From an uncultured bacterium (lineage in GTDB: Bacteria; Babelota; Babeliae; Babelales; Vermiphilaceae), in the NCBI GenBank assembly GCA_963701085.1, contig OY969561.1, positions 704,001 through 768,000 on the forward strand: a stretch of 64,000 bases of DNA. The letters run 5' to 3'. The notes below the pieces were generated by a model. It made no database searches and had not been told where the DNA came from. It saw only the letters and a list, made by a program, of their open reading frames with translations. Position 1 is the stretch's first letter. Each line of letters opens with the position of its first letter. Shown in pieces: positions 11,773-61,671 of this stretch. Made by a program: the position numbers and the translations under genes.

Positions 11773-12405
11773 ATGAAAAAACACATTATCTCAGCAATTG
11801 TCACCATATCACTCACTAATCTTACTACCCATACTATGGACCAAGCATTAGTCTGCAGTGATAGATTTGACAAATTACCCAAGCATGAACTAAATATAAT
11901 TGCATCATTCACCAAAAGACCCGGCAAAGATACATTGCGATGCGTTAATAAAACACTTAATGCAAAAATAATTTCACAAGACGATCTATATGCACGCTAT
12001 GAGAATGCAAAGCTCCACAAAGATCCACGTACAATACAAGCATTATTGGAATATAATACATTTGTCATCCCTAACATGCATCATGTGGACATAGAGGCAT
12101 TCTTGCGCTACAACATATACAAAATACCTAACCTACACTCTGAACTGATTAATGCTATTAAAGACAACAATATCCCATTGGCAATATACTGCTTAAACAG
12201 ACTTCCTAGATTTATGGGGCATTTTCAACACAATTGCATCAATATTGCTACCAGTAACGGTAATATTGATATGGTAAAAATATTATTACCACGCCGTGAT
12301 GATAAGATGCAAAATACTTTAAAGCAAAATCATCATGTTGCAAATGTCGCAGCAAAAAACAAGCGCCCTCTAGACATCGTTAGAGTTTTTGAAGAGATTA
12401 TTTAA
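11773..12405 (+). CDS. Exported F-box-like/ankyrin protein
   Basis: Signal peptide; FDKLPKHELNIIASF...LRCVNK; INIATSNGNIDMVKILL ankyrin repeat. Confidence 0.6.
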   Translation: MKKHIISAIVTISLTNLTTHTMDQALVCSDRFDKLPKHELNIIASFTKRPGKDTLRCVNKTLNAKIISQDDLYARYENAKLHKDPRTIQALLEYNTFVIPNMHHVDIEAFLRYNIYKIPNLHSELINAIKDNNIPLAIYCLNRLPRFMGHFQHNCINIATSNGNIDMVKILLPRRDDKMQNTLKQNHHVANVAAKNKRPLDIVRVFEEII

Positions 12406-12455: not shown

Positions 12456-14117
12456 ATGCACTTCAAAACCATTTTATTTCCATTCATTTTCTTGGCAACA
12501 TGCATTCCCCACACATCTTTTGCTATGCATGGTAAAAAACAAATAGCAGAACAAAAAAAACGCATGCAACAGAACTTACAAAAAAAAAGAACTCAAAATG
12601 AATGCAATACAAAGCTACTAAAATTATGCGATATAGATACAACAAACAAAGATCTATCCTTCATACTCAAACTACATGATACTGCAAAAAATCTTCTTGA
12701 TAATGGTGCCGATATAGAAGCACAAACAGTAAATAAATGCACTTCACTATATCTTGCTTGTTCAAACAAAAACTTTCCAATGGTAAAACTACTCATTGCT
12801 TATGGCGCCAATGTAAATACTCAAACTGAAAATGGTTATACTTCCTTGGCAGTTACTGCACAAAAGGGATTTTTTGATATAGTAAACATACTGACCATGG
12901 CACAAGCAAGCCCCAACATTCAAAATTTTAAAGACGGACAAGTACCTTTACATAATGCTTGTAGTGCCGGAGATTTTAATATTGCAAAAAATTTACTTGA
13001 ACATAACGCAAACCCAAATATACAAACATTATACGGAGAAACAGCTCTTCTTTTTGCCGCAAGTCCACAACATCTTGATATAGTAAAGTTGTTATTTCAA
13101 TATCGCGCAAATCCAAATATTCAAAATAGTGAGGGATTAAGCCCTCTCTATCTTGCTTGCCAACACAATAATGTAGAAATGGCAAAAATAATACTTACTA
13201 ATAATGCAAACCCTGATGTACAAAAATCAAACGGTGCAACATCACTTCGTGTTGCTGTAGAAAACAAGTTTATTGATATAATACATCTGTTATTTACATT
13301 CCATGCAAATCCAAATATTCAAGATAATAATGGAGTAAGCCCATTGCACTTTGCTTGCGGCAAAGGCTACTTAGAAATAGTAGAAATATTGCTTAACAAT
13401 AAAGCAAAGATAAATACTGAGACCAAAAAAGGTAAATGGACTCCATTACACGCCGCTTTTTTCTATGATCATTTTTTTATTGTAGCACTATTACTCAAAC
13501 ATAATGTCAATGTTAATGCTCAAAATATTGATGGCATAACACCTTTACATCTAGCTTATTACAAAAAGAATCGAGTTATGATATACCTTCTTTTGCTGTA
13601 TGGTGCCAAAGATATTTCTCGTCAACAAGCTCAAAAAGAAAAACAGCAATTTTTTGAAGATGTAAATCAAAAAGCACCTCAAGTAATACTTCCAAAAGAA
13701 AAACCTGTAGTACCTCATCAACCGGCAACAAAAAAAGATAGCGCTATAAAAGATCAATCACCCCAGAAAAACTCTCCTTCAACCAAAGCTTTAAAAAACA
13801 AGCCAAATCCTACAAAAAACACGGTTACAATACATACTCCACAAAAAAATGAATATCTCATTTTACAAGATAAGAAGTTTAAGTGGGGCAGATTTTTAAG
13901 TACAACACAGCAAAATGCAATAAAAGACCACGCAAAAGAACTCAAATATTGGCCTGAGGTAACTGATCTTGATATTAAGCCTCTCCAAGGAGTCGAAAAA
14001 GGAACATATCGTCTGCGTGTTGGTTCATGCCGCATTAAATTTTTTATTGATGAAAAAAGTCGTCAAATTTTCATCCAAAAAATTGGCCTGCGCAAAAATA
14101 TATACCGAAACAAATAA
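12456..14117 (+). CDS. Exported ankyrin-repeat protein with a C-terminal RelE/ParE-superfamily domain
   Basis: Signal peptide; about 9 ankyrin repeats; low-complexity linker; DIKPLQG..YRLRVGSCRI.F.I....I.I..IGLRKNIY. Confidence 0.85.
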   Translation: MHFKTILFPFIFLATCIPHTSFAMHGKKQIAEQKKRMQQNLQKKRTQNECNTKLLKLCDIDTTNKDLSFILKLHDTAKNLLDNGADIEAQTVNKCTSLYLACSNKNFPMVKLLIAYGANVNTQTENGYTSLAVTAQKGFFDIVNILTMAQASPNIQNFKDGQVPLHNACSAGDFNIAKNLLEHNANPNIQTLYGETALLFAASPQHLDIVKLLFQYRANPNIQNSEGLSPLYLACQHNNVEMAKIILTNNANPDVQKSNGATSLRVAVENKFIDIIHLLFTFHANPNIQDNNGVSPLHFACGKGYLEIVEILLNNKAKINTETKKGKWTPLHAAFFYDHFFIVALLLKHNVNVNAQNIDGITPLHLAYYKKNRVMIYLLLLYGAKDISRQQAQKEKQQFFEDVNQKAPQVILPKEKPVVPHQPATKKDSAIKDQSPQKNSPSTKALKNKPNPTKNTVTIHTPQKNEYLILQDKKFKWGRFLSTTQQNAIKDHAKELKYWPEVTDLDIKPLQGVEKGTYRLRVGSCRIKFFIDEKSRQIFIQKIGLRKNIYRNK

Positions 14118-19589: not shown

Positions 19590-20231
19590 ATGCCACAGCT
19601 AACCAAAGGAATTCTCATCGCCATTGAGGGAATTGATGGTTCAGGAAAATCAACCCTCGCCCATAATTTATCCATCACGCTGCAACAACAGGGATTTGAT
19701 ACAGTGCTCACAAAAGAGCCAGGAGCCTCTAACATAGGTAAAGAGATTCGCAAGATCATACAGGCCCAAAATATCGCGTTTTGCTCAAAAGCGGAATACT
19801 TACTCTTTGCTGCCGACCGTGCACAACATTTTGCTGAACTCGTCATCCCAAGTCTTGCACAAAAAAAATTGATCATTTCTGATCGCATGGCTGATTCATC
19901 ACTTGCATACCAAGGATACGGCAATGGACTTGATTTAGAAATGCTACGCACCATCAACAGCTGGACAATGAATAATATTGTCCCAGATCTTACCATTTTT
20001 GTTCGCGTACCCGTTGCTATTGCTCTTGAACGCGCCAAAAACCGCGGCCCATTATCTGCCTATGAAAAGCGTGAAAATTTTCTACATAATGTTGCTGCAG
20101 GATTTGAAGAGCTTTATAAAAATCGCACTGATGTTATAATAGTAGATGGAACTTTATCACAAGAATCTCTTAACACCCACGTTTGTAACGCAATTAAACA
20201 ATGGATACACACAAAAAATCTTCTTTCTTAA
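19590..20231 (+). CDS. tmk: Thymidylate kinase (housekeeping copy)
   Basis: EGIDGSGKST, EPG, LFAADRAQH and DR..SSLAYQG; canonical tmk-holB order. Confidence 0.95.
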   Translation: MPQLTKGILIAIEGIDGSGKSTLAHNLSITLQQQGFDTVLTKEPGASNIGKEIRKIIQAQNIAFCSKAEYLLFAADRAQHFAELVIPSLAQKKLIISDRMADSSLAYQGYGNGLDLEMLRTINSWTMNNIVPDLTIFVRVPVAIALERAKNRGPLSAYEKRENFLHNVAAGFEELYKNRTDVIIVDGTLSQESLNTHVCNAIKQWIHTKNLLS

Positions 20232-20953
20232 ACCACACACACCAAACAGTGCCGCCAGCGCAATTGTTAATTGGTCGGTATGACCAAATAATGCATGATG
20301 TAGAAAAATTCTTACAACACATGCTCTGTAAAAACAATGGCTGCAATACCTGCACAACCTGCATGCAGATCAGAGAAAAACAACATCATGCGCTGATGTG
20401 GCTCCATCCGGAAAAAAATTATACTCTTGATCAACTTGATGATCTGTTTGCAACGCTTTCATTCCAATTGCAACCAGATGAACTTTTTTTCTTTATTATT
20501 CAAAAAGCAGACTTTTTAACGCCTGCATGTGCTAATAAATTGCTAAAACCAATGGAAGAGCCGCCGCGTGGATATCATTTTATACTGCTGGCTGAACATG
20601 CAGAGCAGATACTGCCCACCATTCGTTCACGATGCGTTGTATATACGCTAGAAACTACAACCGCCCCACACAGCTCTCATCCACTTTTTGAAAACTTTAC
20701 CACAAAATACTCTACAAGCGCTGAATTCTCTAAAATCATCGATTCGGCAAATATTAATGAGAGAGAAAGCATCGAGCTGCTTGATCAGATAATTCGCTAC
20801 TGGCTTACAACGGATCCTACTCTCTTTTTACTCATCACCAAACTACAACAAGCCCAACTACATCCACCCATGCCGGGAAGCACAACAATCTTTTGGCGCA
20901 ACTTGTATTTACAATTGTACAAAGATTTAAACACCATTCTGCGTGACATTTAA
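20201..20953 (+). CDS. holB: DNA polymerase III delta' subunit
   Basis: C...GCNTCTTC zinc motif, ANKLLKPMEEPP and LPTIRSRC. Confidence 0.85.
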   Translation: MDTHKKSSFLNHTHQTVPPAQLLIGRYDQIMHDVEKFLQHMLCKNNGCNTCTTCMQIREKQHHALMWLHPEKNYTLDQLDDLFATLSFQLQPDELFFFIIQKADFLTPACANKLLKPMEEPPRGYHFILLAEHAEQILPTIRSRCVVYTLETTTAPHSSHPLFENFTTKYSTSAEFSKIIDSANINERESIELLDQIIRYWLTTDPTLFLLITKLQQAQLHPPMPGSTTIFWRNLYLQLYKDLNTILRDI

Positions 20954-21038
20954 GCGGTTCAATAGTATTATTGCCCAAACATAAACACACGCATGGATTT
21001 TTAAATACAAAAAATTCATACAAAAAAAAGGGCCTTTC

Positions 21039-21773
21039 ATGAATACAAAGCACCTGTTATTATTCGCTTTCTGCGCAGCAGCACCATTCACCTCACACGC
21101 CATGGAAAACCATAAACAACTCAACCGAGGAATTTTAATTGCCATTGAAGGAATTGATGGTTCTGGAAAAACAACACTCGCTCAATCAGTAAATGCTACA
21201 TTAGCGCAACAAGGATTTGACACAGTGCTCACCAGAGAACCGGGTGACTCTGCATTAGGCAAAGAAATTCGTGAGCTTATACAGACCCAAACAATGCCAA
21301 TTTCACCTAAAGCAGAATTTCTACTTTTTGCCGCTGACCGTGCACAACATTTTCACGAACTCGTTATCCCCGCACTAGAAGAAAAGAAATTAGTCATTTC
21401 CGATCGCCTTGCAGATTCATCACTTGCCTACCAAGGATATGGCCGCGGGCTTTTTATTCCAACATTACGTATCATTAATTCATTTGCCATGAATACTCTT
21501 GAAGAAAAATATATTAATCCATATACCCCGGATATTACCATCTTTGTCCGTGTTCCAGTAAAAGTTGCTCTTGAACGGTGTAAAAAGCGCTCTTCTCTTT
21601 CTATTTTTGAACAAGAAAAATTCTTAGAATCCGTAGCACTGGGATTTGAAGAAATATATAAAAGTTGCATTGATTATGTCGCTGTTGATGGCACTACATC
21701 ACCAGAAGAGCTCACCACACAAGTATGTAATAAAATACAAGACTGGATAGAAGCACAAAAACTTCTTTCTTAA
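21039..21773 (+). CDS. Second thymidylate kinase carrying an N-terminal signal peptide
   Basis: Close paralog of 19590..20231 plus MNTKHLLLFAFCAAAPFTSHA-M leader. Confidence 0.9.
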   Translation: MNTKHLLLFAFCAAAPFTSHAMENHKQLNRGILIAIEGIDGSGKTTLAQSVNATLAQQGFDTVLTREPGDSALGKEIRELIQTQTMPISPKAEFLLFAADRAQHFHELVIPALEEKKLVISDRLADSSLAYQGYGRGLFIPTLRIINSFAMNTLEEKYINPYTPDITIFVRVPVKVALERCKKRSSLSIFEQEKFLESVALGFEEIYKSCIDYVAVDGTTSPEELTTQVCNKIQDWIEAQKLLS

Positions 21774-21790
21774 GCAAAAAAGCTATTAAC

Positions 21791-21832
21791 AAAAAGGCAT
21801 TCGAAAGTTATATTGCTTTCGAATGCCTTTTT
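21791..21832. terminator. Bidirectional terminator
   Basis: AAAAAGGCATTCGAAAG..CTTTCGAATGCCTTTTT. Confidence 0.85.
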
Positions 21833-21850
21833 AAAGAACAATATTTTATC

Positions 21851-22132
21851 TCATGACGATGTCTCATAAAACAAATCTTGCACTGTTGGCGAATAGCTTT
21901 GTTCCGAAAGACTTAATTTAAATATATCACCAGGTGATTCTTGCTGTTGTTCTTTAATAAAAAATTTACCTGATCCTGCTATTGGTATCGGCTTACTACG
22001 AATCCTTTTTAATACGACAAACTTTGTCAACACCTCTTTTTTTGCTCCTTTACTTCTCTTTTGCACATGAGTGTCCATCGCCATTATCATGACCGACTGT
22101 ATAAACAACAAACAAACCACATACTTATTCAT
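21851..22132 (-). CDS. Small exported hypothetical protein
   Basis: SD GGAGG before ATG 22132; signal MNKYVVCLLFIQSVMIMA-MD. Confidence 0.6.
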   Translation of the reverse strand: MNKYVVCLLFIQSVMIMAMDTHVQKRSKGAKKEVLTKFVVLKRIRSKPIPIAGSGKFFIKEQQQESPGDIFKLSLSEQSYSPTVQDLFYETSS

Positions 22133-40980: not shown

Positions 40981-42132
40981 ATGACTAAAAAAATAAATAA
41001 TTCATTCATCGCCTTCCTGCTACTTGCTGCAACGTTTAACCTTCATAAAACACATGCCATGGAGCAGTCAATATCAGAAGAATCAACACAAAATGAGATA
41101 AATGATGCTTTCATAAAAGCCGCACAAAACAATGACTGTTCTACCATCAAAAAACTTCTCAGCTATGGGGCAGATATCAATACAACTAATTCAGAGGGAG
41201 TGACAGCATTAATGCTTGCTATCGGAAATAGATACACTGATGCAATCCAATGCCTTCTTAGCAACCCTGATATTGCCATAAACCAACAAGATAACACGGG
41301 AATGACTGCTCTCATGCTAGCAGCAGTAATAAATAATTGCCGTATCATCCGCATACTTCTCGCTCATGGAGCCGATATCAATAAAGCTAATTTCAAGGGA
41401 CAAACGGCATTAATACTCGCTGTCCTTCGTGGAAACACAAATGCGGTCAAACGTCTTCTGAGTAACCCTAATCTTGCCATAGACCAACAAGACAATAAAG
41501 GATATACAGCTCTCATGGTGTCACTTATCTTTTTTTCAAGAACTAAAAATAAATTAACTATAAGAAGACTTCTTAATGCTGGCGCAGATCCTGAAATTGC
41601 TGCACCTGAAATTGACAACAATGCTGCTCTCACACCACTAGAAGTAGCAGAAGGCACTGGTGATCAAGAAGTTATTGATCTTATTCAAAATGCGATAAAT
41701 GACAAACAAAATACTGCCCTTATAGAAGCAGCAAAAAACAACGACTGCCCTACCATCCAAAAATGTCTCAATAATGGAGCAAATATCAATATAGCCACTT
41801 CCAATGGATTCACGGCATTAATGATAGCTATCGACAGGGAACACACGGATGCAGTCCAATGCCTTGTGGGCAATCCTAATATTGCGATAGACCAACGAAA
41901 CAATGAAGAAGATAATGATACCGCTCTCATGCTAGCACTTTTGGGAAAAAACAAATTAATTATAAAACTACTTCTTGATGCTGGCGCAGATCCTGAGCTG
42001 GCTGATAGTAAACGCCGCACACCATTAAAAGTAGCTCAACAAATTGGTGATGCAGAAATTCTATCCTTAATAAACAAAGCAATACTAAAAAAACATGGTG
42101 TAGTGAACATTGTTACTAAGACACAAAAATAG
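40981..42132 (+). CDS. Exported ankyrin-repeat protein (array gene 2)
   Basis: Signal ..THA-ME; multiple G.TALM repeats. Confidence 0.9.
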   Translation: MTKKINNSFIAFLLLAATFNLHKTHAMEQSISEESTQNEINDAFIKAAQNNDCSTIKKLLSYGADINTTNSEGVTALMLAIGNRYTDAIQCLLSNPDIAINQQDNTGMTALMLAAVINNCRIIRILLAHGADINKANFKGQTALILAVLRGNTNAVKRLLSNPNLAIDQQDNKGYTALMVSLIFFSRTKNKLTIRRLLNAGADPEIAAPEIDNNAALTPLEVAEGTGDQEVIDLIQNAINDKQNTALIEAAKNNDCPTIQKCLNNGANINIATSNGFTALMIAIDREHTDAVQCLVGNPNIAIDQRNNEEDNDTALMLALLGKNKLIIKLLLDAGADPELADSKRRTPLKVAQQIGDAEILSLINKAILKKHGVVNIVTKTQK

Positions 42133-42153: not shown

Positions 42154-43272
42154 ATGAAGATAATCAAAAAAACAGGTTCATTCATCGCTCTGCTGATGCT
42201 TGCTTCAACATTTAATAACTATAGCATGGAGCCGCAACAACAACCAGAATGGGCTACTGTTGTTGGCGATATCATTCTTGGCACTGCAAGTTTGACAATA
42301 CTATCGCAACCAAATGAACCCTTTGAATTCACTGCTCTACCACCGGAAATGCAAGATAAAATTATTCAGTTACTCAGCTTAAACACAACTGCCGAATCAC
42401 TTAAAGAGGCTGCAAAAACTATTAATTCTCTTGCTCAAGTGAATCATGAATTAAATCAACAGATAAACGATCCTAAATTTTGCCTCAGCATCATCAAACA
42501 TCTTGCACAAAAATTCAACTGCTCTGATCAGGAAGCAGCTAAGACATTACAGACACACGAGGCAAAACGGCGTCTTGTGTTGCAAAATCAACTCTATGTA
42601 CATTGCAGTACTCCATTCGGTATAACCGATCCCCTAAAAAATATCCCATCCCTTGATTCTTTATTAGAACAAGGCGTCGATTTAAATTTTACCTATGACA
42701 CGTTAACACCTAAACTTTTTTTTACTCCACTGATGCTTACAATCGCCAGCAGTAACCTAATGATTGGAGATCTTTGTTCAATTGGAAGAAATATCATCAA
42801 CTTAAATCAAAGAAATACTCTCAATGGTGATACAGCCCTTATACAAAGCGTTAAAAAAAGATCGCGTTTTAGTGTCCAGTGCCTTCTTGAAGAAGGTGCT
42901 GATCCTGAACTTGCCAATTTTGCTGGGCAAACACCACTAGAATTAGCCGCACAACGATATCACCTGACGCAGCACAGAAGCTATCAAAAAATTTTTAATC
43001 TTATTCAAAGGGCGATAGATATTTATTTTATTCAAAATGCGATAGATAACAAACATGTTAACCAAAGAAATAACAAAGGGCAAACTGCTTTATCATTAGC
43101 CGCAGCAATACCATCATCTCGCTTGGTAAAAACCATTCTTGATGCCGGTGCCGATCCCGAACTTGCTGATGATGAAGGCCTCACCCCACTTGCTGCTGCC
43201 CAACAAACTGACAACCAAGCAATTATTGATCTTATTCAAGATGCGATAGATAGAAAACATGGCTATAAATAA
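42154..43272 (+). CDS. Exported F-box-like/ankyrin protein (array gene 3)
   Basis: Signal ..NYS-ME; FTALPPEMQDKIIQLL; ankyrin repeats. Confidence 0.85.
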   Translation: MKIIKKTGSFIALLMLASTFNNYSMEPQQQPEWATVVGDIILGTASLTILSQPNEPFEFTALPPEMQDKIIQLLSLNTTAESLKEAAKTINSLAQVNHELNQQINDPKFCLSIIKHLAQKFNCSDQEAAKTLQTHEAKRRLVLQNQLYVHCSTPFGITDPLKNIPSLDSLLEQGVDLNFTYDTLTPKLFFTPLMLTIASSNLMIGDLCSIGRNIINLNQRNTLNGDTALIQSVKKRSRFSVQCLLEEGADPELANFAGQTPLELAAQRYHLTQHRSYQKIFNLIQRAIDIYFIQNAIDNKHVNQRNNKGQTALSLAAAIPSSRLVKTILDAGADPELADDEGLTPLAAAQQTDNQAIIDLIQDAIDRKHGYK

Positions 43273-43319: not shown

Positions 43320-44447
43320 ATGACTAAAAAAATTAATTCACTCATCGCTCTACTGCTACTTGCTACGACGTTTAATAGCTACAGCATGGAGCCGCAGCGA
43401 CCACCGCAATGGACAGTCTTGACGTTAGTGATTGGAGATATCATTCTTGGCAAAAGACCACCAGAAATAGGGAAATTGCGGGAGTACGTTGTTTCGTTAC
43501 CTGCCATACCAGAATATATGCAAAAGTTAATCATTCAATTAATAACTTTATACGTCGATGCTCAATCACTTAAAGGAGCAACAGGAGCCATTAATTCTCT
43601 TGCTCAGGTAGATGATCAATTCAATCGATTAATTAATATCCCTGACTTTTGTTTATACCTTATCAAGCATCTTGCAAAAAAATTCAACCGCTCTGATCAG
43701 GAAGCAGCTGAAGCATTACAGACACACGAAGCAAAACGGCGTCTTGATTTGCAAAATCAACTCTATACATTGTGTGAAAATCCTCATAACTCCATATCTC
43801 TTGAAGATTTATATCATGCAGATTTGACATTCACCTATACCTCGTGGCCTCAAACATTATTAATGCAAGCAATCACCTTCGGCAGTATGGCGATAATACG
43901 CCAGCTTCTTAATGCCGGCGCTGATCCAGAAATCGCTAATAATGATGGGCTGACGCCATTACAAGCCGCTCAACAAACTGGTAACCAAGAAATTATTGAT
44001 CTTATTCAAAATGCGATAAATAAAAAACAAAATACTGCCCTTATAAAGGCAGCACAAAAGAACAACTGCCTTATGATCAAAGAACTTCTCTCTAATGGAG
44101 CAAACATCAATACAACTGATTCCGATGGAAACACAGCATTACTATGGGCTGTCGATCAAGAACATATAGATGCAGTCCAATGCCTTGTGGGCAATCCTAA
44201 TATTGCGATAGACCAACACAACAATGAAGAAGATACCGCTCTTATGCTAGCACTTGTTAAAAAAAACAAATTAATTATACAACTACTTCTTGATGCCGGC
44301 GCAGATCCTGAGCTGGGTGATAGTAGACGTCACACACCGTTAAAAATAGCTCAAAAAACTGAGGATGCAGAAATTATATCCTTAATAAGTAAAGCAATAC
44401 TAAAAAAGCATGGTGTAGTGAATATTTTTGCTAAAACACAAAAGTAG
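43320..44447 (+). CDS. Exported F-box-like/ankyrin protein (array gene 4, chimeric)
   Basis: N-terminal half resembles gene 3; C-terminal half resembles gene 2. Confidence 0.85.
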   Translation: MTKKINSLIALLLLATTFNSYSMEPQRPPQWTVLTLVIGDIILGKRPPEIGKLREYVVSLPAIPEYMQKLIIQLITLYVDAQSLKGATGAINSLAQVDDQFNRLINIPDFCLYLIKHLAKKFNRSDQEAAEALQTHEAKRRLDLQNQLYTLCENPHNSISLEDLYHADLTFTYTSWPQTLLMQAITFGSMAIIRQLLNAGADPEIANNDGLTPLQAAQQTGNQEIIDLIQNAINKKQNTALIKAAQKNNCLMIKELLSNGANINTTDSDGNTALLWAVDQEHIDAVQCLVGNPNIAIDQHNNEEDTALMLALVKKNKLIIQLLLDAGADPELGDSRRHTPLKIAQKTEDAEIISLISKAILKKHGVVNIFAKTQK

Positions 44448-47758: not shown

Positions 47759-48637
47759 ATGCACAATAAATTAATTTTTATGAGCCTTATCATCTGTGTT
47801 TCAACAATAAATGGAATGGAATTCAATGATTTTCAAGAATATGAATTTTTACCAGTAGAAATACAATATTTAATCATTTATTTTGCTACCAATCATCTTG
47901 CAGTCAAAAAACCAAAAGAAGCTACTCAAATAATCAGAAACCTTTCCGAAACAAGTAACAGTATCAACGCTATCATTAATACACCAAAATTTAATGTTAA
48001 CCTTATAAACAATCTTGCACATACATACAAATGTTCTCATCAATCTATTGCGCAATTTCTGAACACACAACAATCAAAAAAACAATTAGCTTTGCAACAT
48101 CAACTCAAACAATTATGTCGCATTGAACAAGATATTAACCTCCTAACAAAATTGAATGAATTAGTCTCCCAAGGCATAGATCTAGAATTTACCTACAATT
48201 ATTACCCTTGTCACAAAACACCTCTCATGATAGCTATGGACTATGACAACAATATGTTTGAATACCTCATTACGCATGGTGCAAATATCAACGGTTGTAA
48301 CCTCCATGGCGCCACTGTGTTACACCTTGCCGTCAGCAAACCAGTAAACAAATATTACATCGCACGACTTGCTACAAGCCCTGCCATTGCCATAAACCAA
48401 CAAAACTGCCGTGGTGAAAACGCTTTATTGCATTGTCTCACCAGAAAAAATTTACCCACTAATCGTCTCCTTACCGCCATAGTACGGACACTTCTTAAAG
48501 CAGGCATAGACCCTGAAAACAGCAACCGTAGACAAAAAGAGCTCAATCCCCTTACCGCTGCTCAAGATTTAGGTTACCAACCGATCATTAGTATTCTTGA
48601 AAAAGCCCTTGAAGAAAAGCATTCCTTAACTCAGTGA
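47759..48637 (+). CDS. Exported F-box-like/ankyrin protein
   Basis: Signal ..TING-ME; LPVEIQYLII; same architecture as array genes 1 and 3. Confidence 0.82.
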   Translation: MHNKLIFMSLIICVSTINGMEFNDFQEYEFLPVEIQYLIIYFATNHLAVKKPKEATQIIRNLSETSNSINAIINTPKFNVNLINNLAHTYKCSHQSIAQFLNTQQSKKQLALQHQLKQLCRIEQDINLLTKLNELVSQGIDLEFTYNYYPCHKTPLMIAMDYDNNMFEYLITHGANINGCNLHGATVLHLAVSKPVNKYYIARLATSPAIAINQQNCRGENALLHCLTRKNLPTNRLLTAIVRTLLKAGIDPENSNRRQKELNPLTAAQDLGYQPIISILEKALEEKHSLTQ

Positions 48638-60759: not shown

Positions 60760-61671
60760 CTATTCATTATACTCTTCATAAGCCGCAAATAACTCCTCTA
60801 ACCGTTCGCATTGCATTTTTTTTGCATGCATACGTGGAGTTAAGCCATTTTCATCAGGTGCATTAATCTGTATATTCATATTATACTCTAATGCATCGTA
60901 TATCTCGTATGCCTCATCAAACCATCTGTTTTGTTCATATTGCTTAATTTTGTCAAAGAATAGCTGCTGTGCGTGACAAGCTTCTGCATCATATATTTCT
61001 TTTACAGACTTTTGCTGTAATCTTTTTTGCACTGCTTTAAGTAAATCTGGTCCACTCATTTTTAATCTGCCGTATATAGCCCTATTTCCAAAAGCTGCAG
61101 GAACATACCATATTGGATGTTCAAAAACAGCTCGAATAGGTCCCCATTTTGATTCTATACAATCATCACCGGCAACAATTCCTGTATGAGTTATTCTGTG
61201 TAATAAATCTTTTTCCCTCTCTGGTGATATATACATAATAATATCTCCAGGTCGTACAGACTTACCATCAATCACATCAAAAAATTCGATAATGCTAACA
61301 CCATATTCTTTATCTTTAAACAAACCTGCATAATAATCTTCTAGACCTGGAATATTCAAAACTTTAGAAGCTTTCCCCACAATTTCCATCAATTTAGTAA
61401 AAGCATAGTTATGACACGTGCCATACCTTTTTCCAAGAGGAATTTCTTCTTTAATAACAATTTTACCTTGTGATATATCCACAACCTCTTGCGGAGAGTC
61501 TTTTATACGCCACTTTTGCCGCATGATATCTAATTCGTCACTTTTATTGATCACATGACGTGTAAACTTTTTTTTCATACCTGCAGGTGTTTTGGTAATA
61601 TGCATACCAAAAATTGAATGAGAAACGATTAAAGATAATGAATATATAAGCAATGTATATTTTGTGTGCAT
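60760..61671 (-). CDS. Exported protein with a putative papain-like/NlpC-type Cys-His domain and a terminal ankyrin-like repeat
   Basis: Signal ..IFG-M; TCHNYA, PGDIIMY, HTGIV, ESKWG; INAPDENGLTP. Confidence 0.6.
   Translation of the reverse strand: MHTKYTLLIYSLSLIVSHSIFGMHITKTPAGMKKKFTRHVINKSDELDIMRQKWRIKDSPQEVVDISQGKIVIKEEIPLGKRYGTCHNYAFTKLMEIVGKASKVLNIPGLEDYYAGLFKDKEYGVSIIEFFDVIDGKSVRPGDIIMYISPEREKDLLHRITHTGIVAGDDCIESKWGPIRAVFEHPIWYVPAAFGNRAIYGRLKMSGPDLLKAVQKRLQQKSVKEIYDAEACHAQQLFFDKIKQYEQNRWFDEAYEIYDALEYNMNIQINAPDENGLTPRMHAKKMQCERLEELFAAYEEYNE

Follow-up and report, generated by a model that had tools for sequence, protein, structure and literature searches.

We analyzed a 64,000-nucleotide stretch of DNA (the window; contig OY969561.1 of assembly GCA_963701085.1, positions 704,001 to 768,000, forward strand) in which the housekeeping gene for thymidylate kinase (Tmk), tmk1, and holB, encoding the DNA polymerase III delta' subunit, are followed by a second thymidylate kinase gene, tmk2, with an N-terminal leader. 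The genome (G000) is a single contig of 1,198,634 bp with a GC content of 37% and an estimated completeness of 92.6%. It belongs to the Babeliales (Dependentiae), and its top database relatives bear the name Candidatus Babeliales. The original prediction, made from the letters of this stretch, had described a second tmk with long DNA identity to the first, intact catalytic motifs, the leader MNTKHLLLFAFCAAAPFTSHA ahead of an internal Met, an extra loop (TLEEKYINPY) and a terminator, and had interpreted the gene as a snapshot of effector birth. The duplicate, its motifs, the leader and the terminator were all found in the present analysis. The loop is a real insertion, although it comprises only the eight residues E155-Y162 within TLEEKYINPY.

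The start of holB overlaps the end of tmk1 by 31 nt, and the gene order acs-fdx, tmk1-holB is kept across the genus and the family. An AAGG-type Shine-Dalgarno (SD)-like motif is also present 5' of tmk1. The promoter-like site 5' of tmk2 is a weak candidate (Table 1), and a consensus scan of the region gave 10 promoter-like sites compared with a mean of 9.0 in shuffled sequence, i.e. no excess. Folding revealed a hairpin downstream of tmk2 with a perfect 18-bp stem (-28 kcal/mol, z -8.26), and none of 200 shuffled sequences was equally stable. This hairpin was not picked up by a consensus scan for terminators because its T-run pairs with its A-run, and the same pairing allows it to serve both convergent genes. 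The convergent gene is a small open reading frame (ORF; 21851-22132, minus strand) without a Pfam match, which from an internal Met reads MNKYVVCLLFIQSVMIMA followed by MD and thus has another leader of the junction type described below. The gene layout of the window contained no mobile-element genes beside tmk2.

Contigs from four DNA runs, which are informative on presence and near-identity only, were compared at the locus. Short contigs from two other metagenome runs spanned the junction between holB and the leader with 0-1 substitutions, indicating that the tmk1-holB-tmk2 arrangement is not an assembly artefact. The sole change within the leader in the independent contigs was synonymous (21050 G>A). 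None of the runs listed for 20900-21900 was an RNA run.

Table 1. Features of the tmk1-holB-tmk2 locus and of related genes (window positions unless a contig of G000 is given)
Feature	Position	Strand	Basis or remark
tmk1, housekeeping thymidylate kinase, 213 aa, without leader	19590..20231	+	PF02223, 162.4 bits
holB, DNA polymerase III delta' subunit, 250 aa	20201..20953	+	PF13177, 96.1 bits
Candidate promoter-like site GTGACA-17-TATTAT, 5' of tmk2	20943..20971	+	10/12 consensus positions, weak
SD-like AAGGG, 6 nt ahead of the tmk2 ATG	21028..21032	+	Read from the sequence
tmk2, 244 aa including leader	21039..21773	+	PF02223, 156.3 bits
Predicted leader, residues 1-21, MNTKHLLLFAFCAAAPFTSHA	21039..21101	+	Lys in n-region, 12-residue hydrophobic core, Ser at -3, Ala at -1
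Predicted mature Tmk2 from Met22-Glu23, plus stop codon	21102..21773	+	PF02223 spans residues 36-228
P-loop, E37-G-I-D-G-S-G-K-T-T46	21147..21176	+	Alignment of 21 Tmk2 sequences
Lineage-specific 8-residue surface insertion, E155-Y162	21501..21524	+	Alignment, model
LID region, R180-C-K-K-R184...E191	21576..21611	+	Alignment of 21 Tmk2 sequences
Bidirectional intrinsic-terminator hairpin between tmk2 and the convergent small leader gene	21791..21832	.	Folding
Window ORFs with junction leader (examples)	11773-12405, 12456-14117, 40981-42132, 42154-43272, 43320-44447, 47759-48637	+
Further window ORF with junction leader (example)	60760-61671	-
Further window ORF with junction leader (example)	63088-64293	+	Extends past the window end
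PEP-synthase-like gene with hydrophobic N-terminus	G000:C1:317771-320248	-	No Met-Glu junction
PEP-synthase-like gene, second copy	G000:C1:261110-263500	+	Without the hydrophobic N-terminus
GspD-type secretin locus 1	G000:C1:993226-995622	+	N0 and Secretin_N, then Secretin C domain
GspD-type secretin locus 2	G000:C1:998228-1000473	+	N0 and Secretin_N, then Secretin C domain

Tmk2 as a member of the thymidylate kinase family

Tmk1 and Tmk2 are identical at 137 of 219 positions (63%, E 1e-99) in an alignment that begins at Gln26 of Tmk2, and their genes share identical runs of up to 18 nt, e.g. GACCGTGCACAACATTTT. They are the only PF02223 matches in the whole 1.2 Mb genome, and both match the profile over its full length (cut-off 27 bits); residues 36-228 of Tmk2 correspond to profile positions 1-184 of 185. 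The closest relatives of tmk1 are leaderless Tmk proteins with up to 90% identity. A PDB sequence search with Tmk2 returned 25 distinct sequences, which were Tmk chains only (E down to 1.5e-35), and the motifs of Tmk2 line up with the same motifs in these solved chains. The AlphaFold2 model of Tmk2 (mean pLDDT 79.3, pTM 0.78) has a kinase fold from about residue 28, and its top Foldseek matches were all thymidylate kinases (target TM-score 0.84-0.91, rmsd ~2-3 Å).

Among 97 leaderless relatives, 80 alignment columns show a conservation of at least 95%, and 44 of these columns were unchanged in all 21 leader-bearing Tmk2 sequences. The unchanged columns include the P-loop (E37, G38, I39, D40, G41, G43, K44 and T46), TxEPG, FAADRAxHF, DR, DSS, YQ, YG and both LID arginines (R180 and R184), whereas E191 of the LID was kept in 20/21; we take these residues to have the roles commonly assigned to them in Tmk. 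Group-specific changes were confined to three positions, Y70F, N112R and Y158F, the last of which (Tyr158 of Tmk1, Phe190 of Tmk2) lies within the LID. The 8-residue insertion is present in four of the 21 leader-bearing sequences (that of the window, P0001, P0002 and P0003) and has no counterpart in Tmk1, the remaining Tmk2 sequences or the PDB chains. In the model it forms a coil between helix 140-151 and strand 166-171, with a mean pLDDT of 61 over residues 151-160.

The ratio of nonsynonymous to synonymous substitutions (dN/dS, Nei-Gojobori) was 0.20-0.26 in Tmk2 pairs compared with 0.14-0.18 in tmk1 pairs, rough values since dS was high (0.6-1.6). This indicates that tmk2 is a settled, constrained gene under purifying selection, although it evolves faster than tmk1: dN between G000 and G037, another genome of the genus, was 0.39 for tmk2 and 0.13 for tmk1. 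Judging from motifs and model, tmk2 is predicted to encode a catalytically competent deoxythymidine monophosphate (dTMP) kinase. The faster evolution, the three group-specific substitutions and the lineage-specific insertions (8 residues in G000, ~50 in G037 and in G209 of the same genus) would also be compatible with a changed function, in which the fold is kept for another substrate (dUMP, a modified deoxynucleoside monophosphate (dNMP) or a host nucleotide signal) or for binding only. We regard such a change as very unlikely, since all residues aligned with the dTMP- and ATP-binding motifs of solved Tmk are invariant, the insertions lie outside the conserved motifs, and the GRG found in place of GNG has a G-K-G counterpart in the best PDB match. 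GRG is the commoner bacterial form.

Leader of Tmk2 and the Met-Glu leader class

The N-terminus of Tmk2 consists of a 21-residue hydrophobic leader, MNTKHLLLFAFCAAAPFTSHA, followed by MENHKQLNRG. By our own heuristic, it has the layout of a Sec/signal peptidase I substrate (a positive n-region, a hydrophobic core of 7-15 residues, and small uncharged residues at -3 and -1): the n-region MNTKH with Lys4, the core LLLFAFCAAAPF, and TSHA with Ser at -3 and Ala at -1 before Met-Glu. The layout is shared by 17 database relatives and by the Tmk2 proteins of G037, G207 and G209, while the leader sequence has diverged. Residues 1-22 have pLDDT below 50 and lie outside the kinase fold, and none of the 25 matched PDB sequences aligned with residues 1-24.

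Two other explanations of the leader were rejected. The lipobox recognized by signal peptidase II has the pattern [LVI][ASTVI][GAS]C at the end of the h-region; Cys12 of Tmk2 lies in the context F-A-F-C, and several orthologues have F, S, T or A instead of this Cys, which speaks against a lipoprotein signal. A shuffled cassette was not supported either, because a blastn-short search of the genome with 20954-21115 returned nothing beyond A-rich matches of 12-15 nt (E >=0.14). No other leader in the genome shared more than 8 of 23 residues with that of Tmk2.

An SD-like AAGGG lies 6 nt before ATG 21039, whereas nothing SD-like precedes Met22. Among the 108 genes of G000 with a leader of the same class (see below), an SD-like motif (GGAG, GAGG, AGGA, AAGG or AGGT at -16 to -5) precedes the first ATG in 63 and the internal ATG in two; the value for random internal ATGs was 62/768. 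The leader frame is kept in all relatives, whereas Met22 is replaced in ~8 of 19. The SD pattern and the kept leader frame with a replaceable Met22 make initiation at Met22, which the original prediction had named as a possible objection, unlikely, and the upstream ATG 21039 is most likely the start codon. The same observations bear on the possibility that Tmk2 is a second cytoplasmic Tmk, whose leader is uncleaved, inefficient or bypassed at Met22 and which adds to or regulates the cytoplasmic synthesis of the diphosphate, dTDP. It is true that Tmk2 read from Met22 resembles a normal Tmk N-terminus (MENHKQLNRG compared with MPQLTKG), that the only tmk of a genome of another family (G061) has a leader even though a cytoplasmic Tmk is needed there, and that multi-copy tmk is known in phytoplasmas according to the available text of one report (PMC3743221). 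Nevertheless, a cytoplasmic role appears quite unlikely, as Met22 lacks an SD-like motif, the leader frame and its features occur in all relatives seen, and a positive n-region with a 12-residue core resembles a signal peptide rather than an anchor.

The leader of Tmk2 was then compared with those of the whole genome in a census based on a simple hydrophobicity heuristic of our own and crude ORF calls. Signal-like N-termini were found in 332 of 1,144 ORFs, 299 of them without a further membrane segment. A junction [AGSTC]-M-[EDQNHK] at residues 18-31 occurred in 108 of the 299, corresponding to ~9% of the ORF calls, with the consensus ...[ST]x[TSN][LIT][HFY][AGSC]-M-E and a leader of ~17-26 residues. 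Tmk2 fits this class (T-S-H-A-M-E, Met at position 22). When the residue after Met was left free in a recount, 144 of 298 ORFs had [AGSCT]-M at positions 16-33; this Met was followed by Glu in 71 of the 144 and by Glu, Asp, Asn or Gln in 95 (66%), compared with a background of 19% after internal Met.

A Pfam scan covered 296 of the 299 leader ORFs (two of the three left out are ~1,300 aa), and protein categories were drawn by hand from its output. Of 28 leader proteins carrying ankyrin, WD40, C2H2 zinc-finger or PP2C domains, 24 had the junction, compared with none of 25 classical envelope proteins (penicillin-binding proteins, MreC, TolB, ZnuA, solute-binding proteins, BamD, TamB, Ctp, DegP-like proteins, thioredoxins, GspC and GspD). 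It is thus a real leader type of effector-like proteins, as had been supposed. Six of 23 other enzymes also have the junction, including Tmk2, an S-adenosylmethionine (SAM) methyltransferase, a HIT protein and an AAA ATPase. Signal peptide-like leaders, irrespective of the junction, were found on several cofactor-dependent enzymes (SAM methyltransferases, the HIT protein, a CPT-like kinase, the AAA ATPase and a phosphoenolpyruvate (PEP)-synthase-like paralogue), and EEP nuclease-, PLD-, NPP phosphodiesterase- and LigD-3'-phosphoesterase-like proteins have such leaders without a Met-Glu junction. The 296 scanned leader ORFs included no paralogue of adk, gmk, cmk, ndk or another nucleoside mono- or diphosphate kinase. 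In a small sample, some junction leaders were also seen in loci of other genera and families of the order. The pattern suggests that the junction leader may be a lineage-specific export signal for host targeting.

Some further leader-like N-termini were seen in G000. A PEP-synthase/pyruvate-phosphate-dikinase-like protein of 825 aa starts with the hydrophobic stretch MKALHYFLLLIFLS..., which another copy lacks; the two proteins have 61% identity over 800 residues. Here, too, a housekeeping-type enzyme exists in two versions, only one of which has a leader-like N-terminus. N-terminal hydrophobic extensions of 24-48 residues ahead of the domain were noted in several sugar-nucleotide enzymes and glycosyltransferases (GDP-mannose dehydratase, epimerases, UDP-glucose dehydrogenase, GT2, GT6, LicD and a nucleotide-diphospho-sugar transferase), a layout reminiscent of the type II membrane enzymes of the eukaryotic Golgi. 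Leaders were also observed on collagen-repeat proteins and on a C2H2 zinc-finger protein.

Distribution and origin of leader-bearing Tmk

In a sample of 151 genomes of the order, a second high-scoring Tmk was found in G000 and G037 only, among the matches listed; 232 further, weaker Tmk matches lie outside that list. Among 80 genomes of the family, a full second tmk was found in G000, G037, G207 and G209, i.e. in four of the 11 genomes of the window's genus. All four copies are leader-bearing, and they occupy three different loci. The Tmk2 proteins of G037 and G209 begin with MKYM.ISATL.LSI.SHA before ME, contain the extra insert of ~50 residues and share a locus among other leader genes, whereas that of G207, at a third locus, begins with MNIKYLLLMMIMTAITIHTHG followed by TH. 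The order tmk1-holB-tmk2 occurs in G000 only. Databases contain at least 17 distinct leader-bearing Tmk2 sequences that are 54-96% identical.

A maximum-likelihood tree of 72 sequences with trimmed leaders placed every leader-bearing Tmk of the group and all 22 database sequences that it contained in a clade with tmk1 of the genus (support 99/94). Tmk2 is therefore an in-paralogue, as originally proposed, and not the product of a transfer. A recent tandem duplication or gene conversion was ruled out, because the window Tmk2 is about equally distant from the neighbouring Tmk1 (61-63% identity) and from other Tmk1 of the genus (mostly 57-64%; 55% for G116). The snapshot of effector birth envisaged in the original prediction is not supported, given the occurrence of leader-bearing Tmk2 in four of 11 genomes at three loci, the spread of the database sequences, an identity no closer to the neighbour, and the dN/dS values. 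Tmk2 is an established, selectively maintained paralogue at the genus level and not a newborn gene.

A single origin of all leader-bearing Tmk was disfavored by the approximately unbiased (AU) test, which rejected one clade for all 20 leader-bearing sequences (p 0.004), where the leader-bearing group was named after the tree had been seen and some 'leaderless' rows may be mis-called starts. The rejection means that the leader was gained or lost several times or that some database entries have wrongly called starts. For P0001-P0013, the called starts come from database entries only; called starts seem too far upstream in P0002-P0004 and P0035 and too far downstream in P0010 and P0011, of which P0011 was confirmed through G207. 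In G061 (family f12), in-frame MFSVKRSITTLSLAVLTLSGANALYA lies upstream of the only tmk (L039, G061:C3, ~2920-3100, minus strand) behind a perfect AGGAG, and an internal Met is located 12 residues ahead of the P-loop. A single gene might thus use two starts and serve two locations, or its leader might have been gained independently. A scan of metagenome contigs with Tmk2 gave 25 loci, all with at most 54% identity and none with a clear leader. Two of these contigs (L053 and L064) encode distant Tmk homologues (35-40% identical) with in-frame hydrophobic stretches of uncertain meaning upstream, one of which reads ...LVFFIICVTISIWVGRI-ME-GEDQ; they may represent leader-bearing Tmk outside the genus.

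The gene holB comes after tmk1 in G037 (L033), G067 (L035), G116 (L037) and G090 (L038). No tmk2 remnant was detected 3' of holB in G019, G037, G090 and G116 by tblastn (E <=10). At this position, G037, G116 and G090 each have a different leader gene (697, 292 and 287 aa, respectively), and in G019 (L036) tmk1 and holB are separated by a leader gene of 485 aa. The surroundings of tmk1-holB look like a hot spot for the turnover of leader genes in the genus. In G067, a 77-residue tmk fragment (L035, G067:C8, 5353-5586, plus strand) extends from the P-loop through TxEsG to a stop codon; it sits between two large near-duplicate genes, 3.7 kb from tmk-holB of the same genome. Thus, tmk copies do arise and decay in the family. 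That tmk2 itself is a neutral or degenerating duplicate in the process of being lost is nonetheless extremely improbable: it is missing from seven of the 11 genus genomes, but where present it has an open frame constrained by purifying selection, motifs intact in 21/21 sequences, and its own SD-like motif and terminator.

Possible destination of Tmk2 and comparison with known systems

The genome encodes ThyX, a class I-type ribonucleotide reductase large subunit, dCTP deaminase and a single ndk without leader. Together with tmk1, these genes complete the cytoplasmic route to the triphosphate, dTTP, so that tmk2 is surplus. ThyA was not found in G000, and neither was thymidine kinase (tdk), in a genome that is 92.6% complete. 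Nucleotide translocases, to which the original prediction had drawn attention, are represented by two tandem TLC/NTT transporter genes. Two GspD-type secretin loci are adjoined by GspC-like and PilM-like genes. Substrates of type II secretion are not known to have a linear sequence signal.

The paralogy, the intact motifs and fold, the selective constraint, a conserved leader of this class and the probable start codon are consistent with Tmk2 being an exported, active dTMP kinase that acts in a host compartment, a reading to which we would give about an even chance. Translation would begin at ATG 21039, and the pre-protein, whose cleavable signal peptide of the Sec type ends in a small residue-Met-Glu junction, would be exported by Sec and cut by signal peptidase after Ala21 to leave Met-Glu as the new N-terminus. 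Tmk2 would then leave the periplasm alongside other cargo of the leader class, perhaps by GspC/GspD-type secretion or by outer-membrane vesicles; the latter are a proposed delivery route, in the available part of the report, in the cultured relative Chromulinavorax destructans (PMC6561590). In the host compartment, it would convert dTMP to dTDP with host ATP. One possible source of the dTMP would be host DNA degraded to 5'-dNMPs by nuclease- and phosphodiesterase-like enzymes that are exported as well. The outcome would be more thymidine nucleotide for the parasite, similar to the supply of dTTP for import that the original prediction had envisaged, or unbalanced host deoxynucleotide pools. 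To our knowledge, dTTP is the one DNA precursor that cannot be obtained from the large ribonucleotide pools of a host, and it would fit this that the thymidylate step is the only one for which an exported kinase paralogue was seen.

A host compartment is plausible for Tmk2, and is favored over the periplasm because the leader class is common to proteins that make sense only in a eukaryotic cytoplasm. If Tmk2 were exported to the periplasm only, host ATP and dTMP would enter via porins, and dTDP would be made beside NTT-type transporters of the inner membrane. NTT-type transporters carry di- and triphosphates and are not known to carry monophosphates. The conserved Sec-type leader, the tandem NTT genes, the leader-bearing nuclease- and phosphodiesterase-like enzymes that could supply 5'-dNMPs, and a doubtful outer-membrane route with apparently split secretin genes would all suit such a salvage. 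We consider it unlikely, however, since none of the 25 envelope proteins has the Met-Glu junction, which is characteristic of ankyrin and WD40 proteins that have no plausible periplasmic role, the number of NTT genes is independent of Tmk2, and the bacterium has its own ThyX route.

Several observations weigh against an exported Tmk2 acting in the host. Met22 is retained in only ~11 of 19 orthologues, and Tmk2 is kept in only four of the 11 genus genomes, which means that it is dispensable. The tandem NTT pair is present in all 11 genus genomes with or without Tmk2, and a third NTT gene occurs in two genomes without Tmk2, so that the number of NTT genes shows no link to Tmk2; an importer of dTDP or dTTP was not recognized. 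Each secretin gene reads as two ORFs, which could be due to frameshifts, assembly errors or genuinely split genes. The census of leaders used a heuristic of our own, crude ORF calls and categories that we drew ourselves. Finally, G061 has ThyA and only one tmk, which carries the signal-like leader. Either part of the enzyme can stay in the cytoplasm despite such a leader or a single gene serves both compartments, and this case weakens the equation of the leader with export.

If Tmk2 is nevertheless exported to the host, the junction itself may be informative. Met-Glu, Met-Asp, Met-Asn and Met-Gln form the NatB substrate class. According to one paper, such an N-terminus is neither an Arg/N-degron nor a small-residue N-degron, and products of signal peptidase can be N-degron substrates (PMC11735805). 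A new N-terminus of this kind would imitate a eukaryotic translation start and let bacterial proteins escape N-degron degradation by the host, which would explain why the junction is found on host-bound cargo and not on envelope proteins. We tentatively suggest, as a possibility rather than a probability, that the Met-Glu leader is an export signal of the Babeliales for cargo of the host cytosol with an N-terminus that evades N-degrons, and that Tmk2 is a secreted metabolic effector, recruited repeatedly, that would convert dTMP to dTDP in the host free of host cell-cycle control, for DNA replication of the parasite; the repeated recruitment would follow from the rejection of a single leader origin by the AU test and from the independent case in f12.

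Dependentiae are widespread, almost uncultured protist parasites whose exploitation of hosts is largely inferred from genomes. An exported Tmk2 would imply that they export ordinary metabolic enzymes besides repeat-protein effectors, and that thymidine nucleotides are a specific bottleneck. If the junction rule (24/28 compared with 0/25) holds, it would provide a simple sequence predictor of the host-directed proteome of the order, and avoidance of N-degrons would be a testable reason behind it. The class of leaders may be a more valuable lead than Tmk2 itself.

Tmk is otherwise a cytoplasmic housekeeping enzyme. Tmk2 shares family, fold and motifs, including the Gly-type P-loop, the DR motif and the basic LID, with the bacterial Tmk of Aquifex aeolicus (2pbr), Staphylococcus aureus (2ccg), Thermotoga maritima (3hjn) and E. 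coli (4tmk), and differs from them in the export-type leader and, in this species, the 8-residue loop. Large DNA viruses such as poxviruses have their own dTMP kinase in the host cytoplasm, which makes the dTTP supply independent of the host cell cycle. In contrast to this viral enzyme, which is made in the host cytoplasm, Tmk2 would have to be secreted by the bacterium.

Our search of the literature available to us on secretomes of Dependentiae/Babeliales and on secreted nucleotide kinases found neither a leader-bearing or exported Tmk nor the Met-Glu junction. The cultured Chromulinavorax destructans has signal peptides on 44% of its coding sequences and on 78% of its ankyrin proteins, with a Sec route, according to the accessible part of its description (PMC6561590). 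It resembles G000 in this very large predicted repertoire of signal peptides. A Met-Glu junction by which the leaders of effector-like and envelope proteins differ is not mentioned in that part, nor is a nucleotide kinase with a leader. Phytoplasmas, as far as the available text goes, have multi-copy tmk in potential mobile units with dnaB, dnaG, ssb and tra5 (PMC3743221). They have in common with the present case extra tmk copies in a reduced genome of a host-dependent bacterium; unlike these copies, for which the text mentions no leader, tmk2 has no flanking mobile-element genes.

Further parallels come from nucleoside diphosphate kinase (Ndk). The secreted Ndk of Porphyromonas gingivalis is described as leaderless (PMC5121656), in contrast to Tmk2 with its visible Sec-type leader. 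In Waddlia chondrophila (Chlamydiota), the available part of the report describes two Ndk paralogues with kinase motifs, one of which reportedly remains with the bacteria and the other of which reaches host compartments upon heterologous expression (PMC13318545). As in G000, a nucleotide kinase is thus present as two motif-keeping paralogues in an obligate intracellular bacterium, although the enzyme is Ndk rather than Tmk, and it is Tmk2, and not the ndk product of G000, that carries a Sec-type leader.

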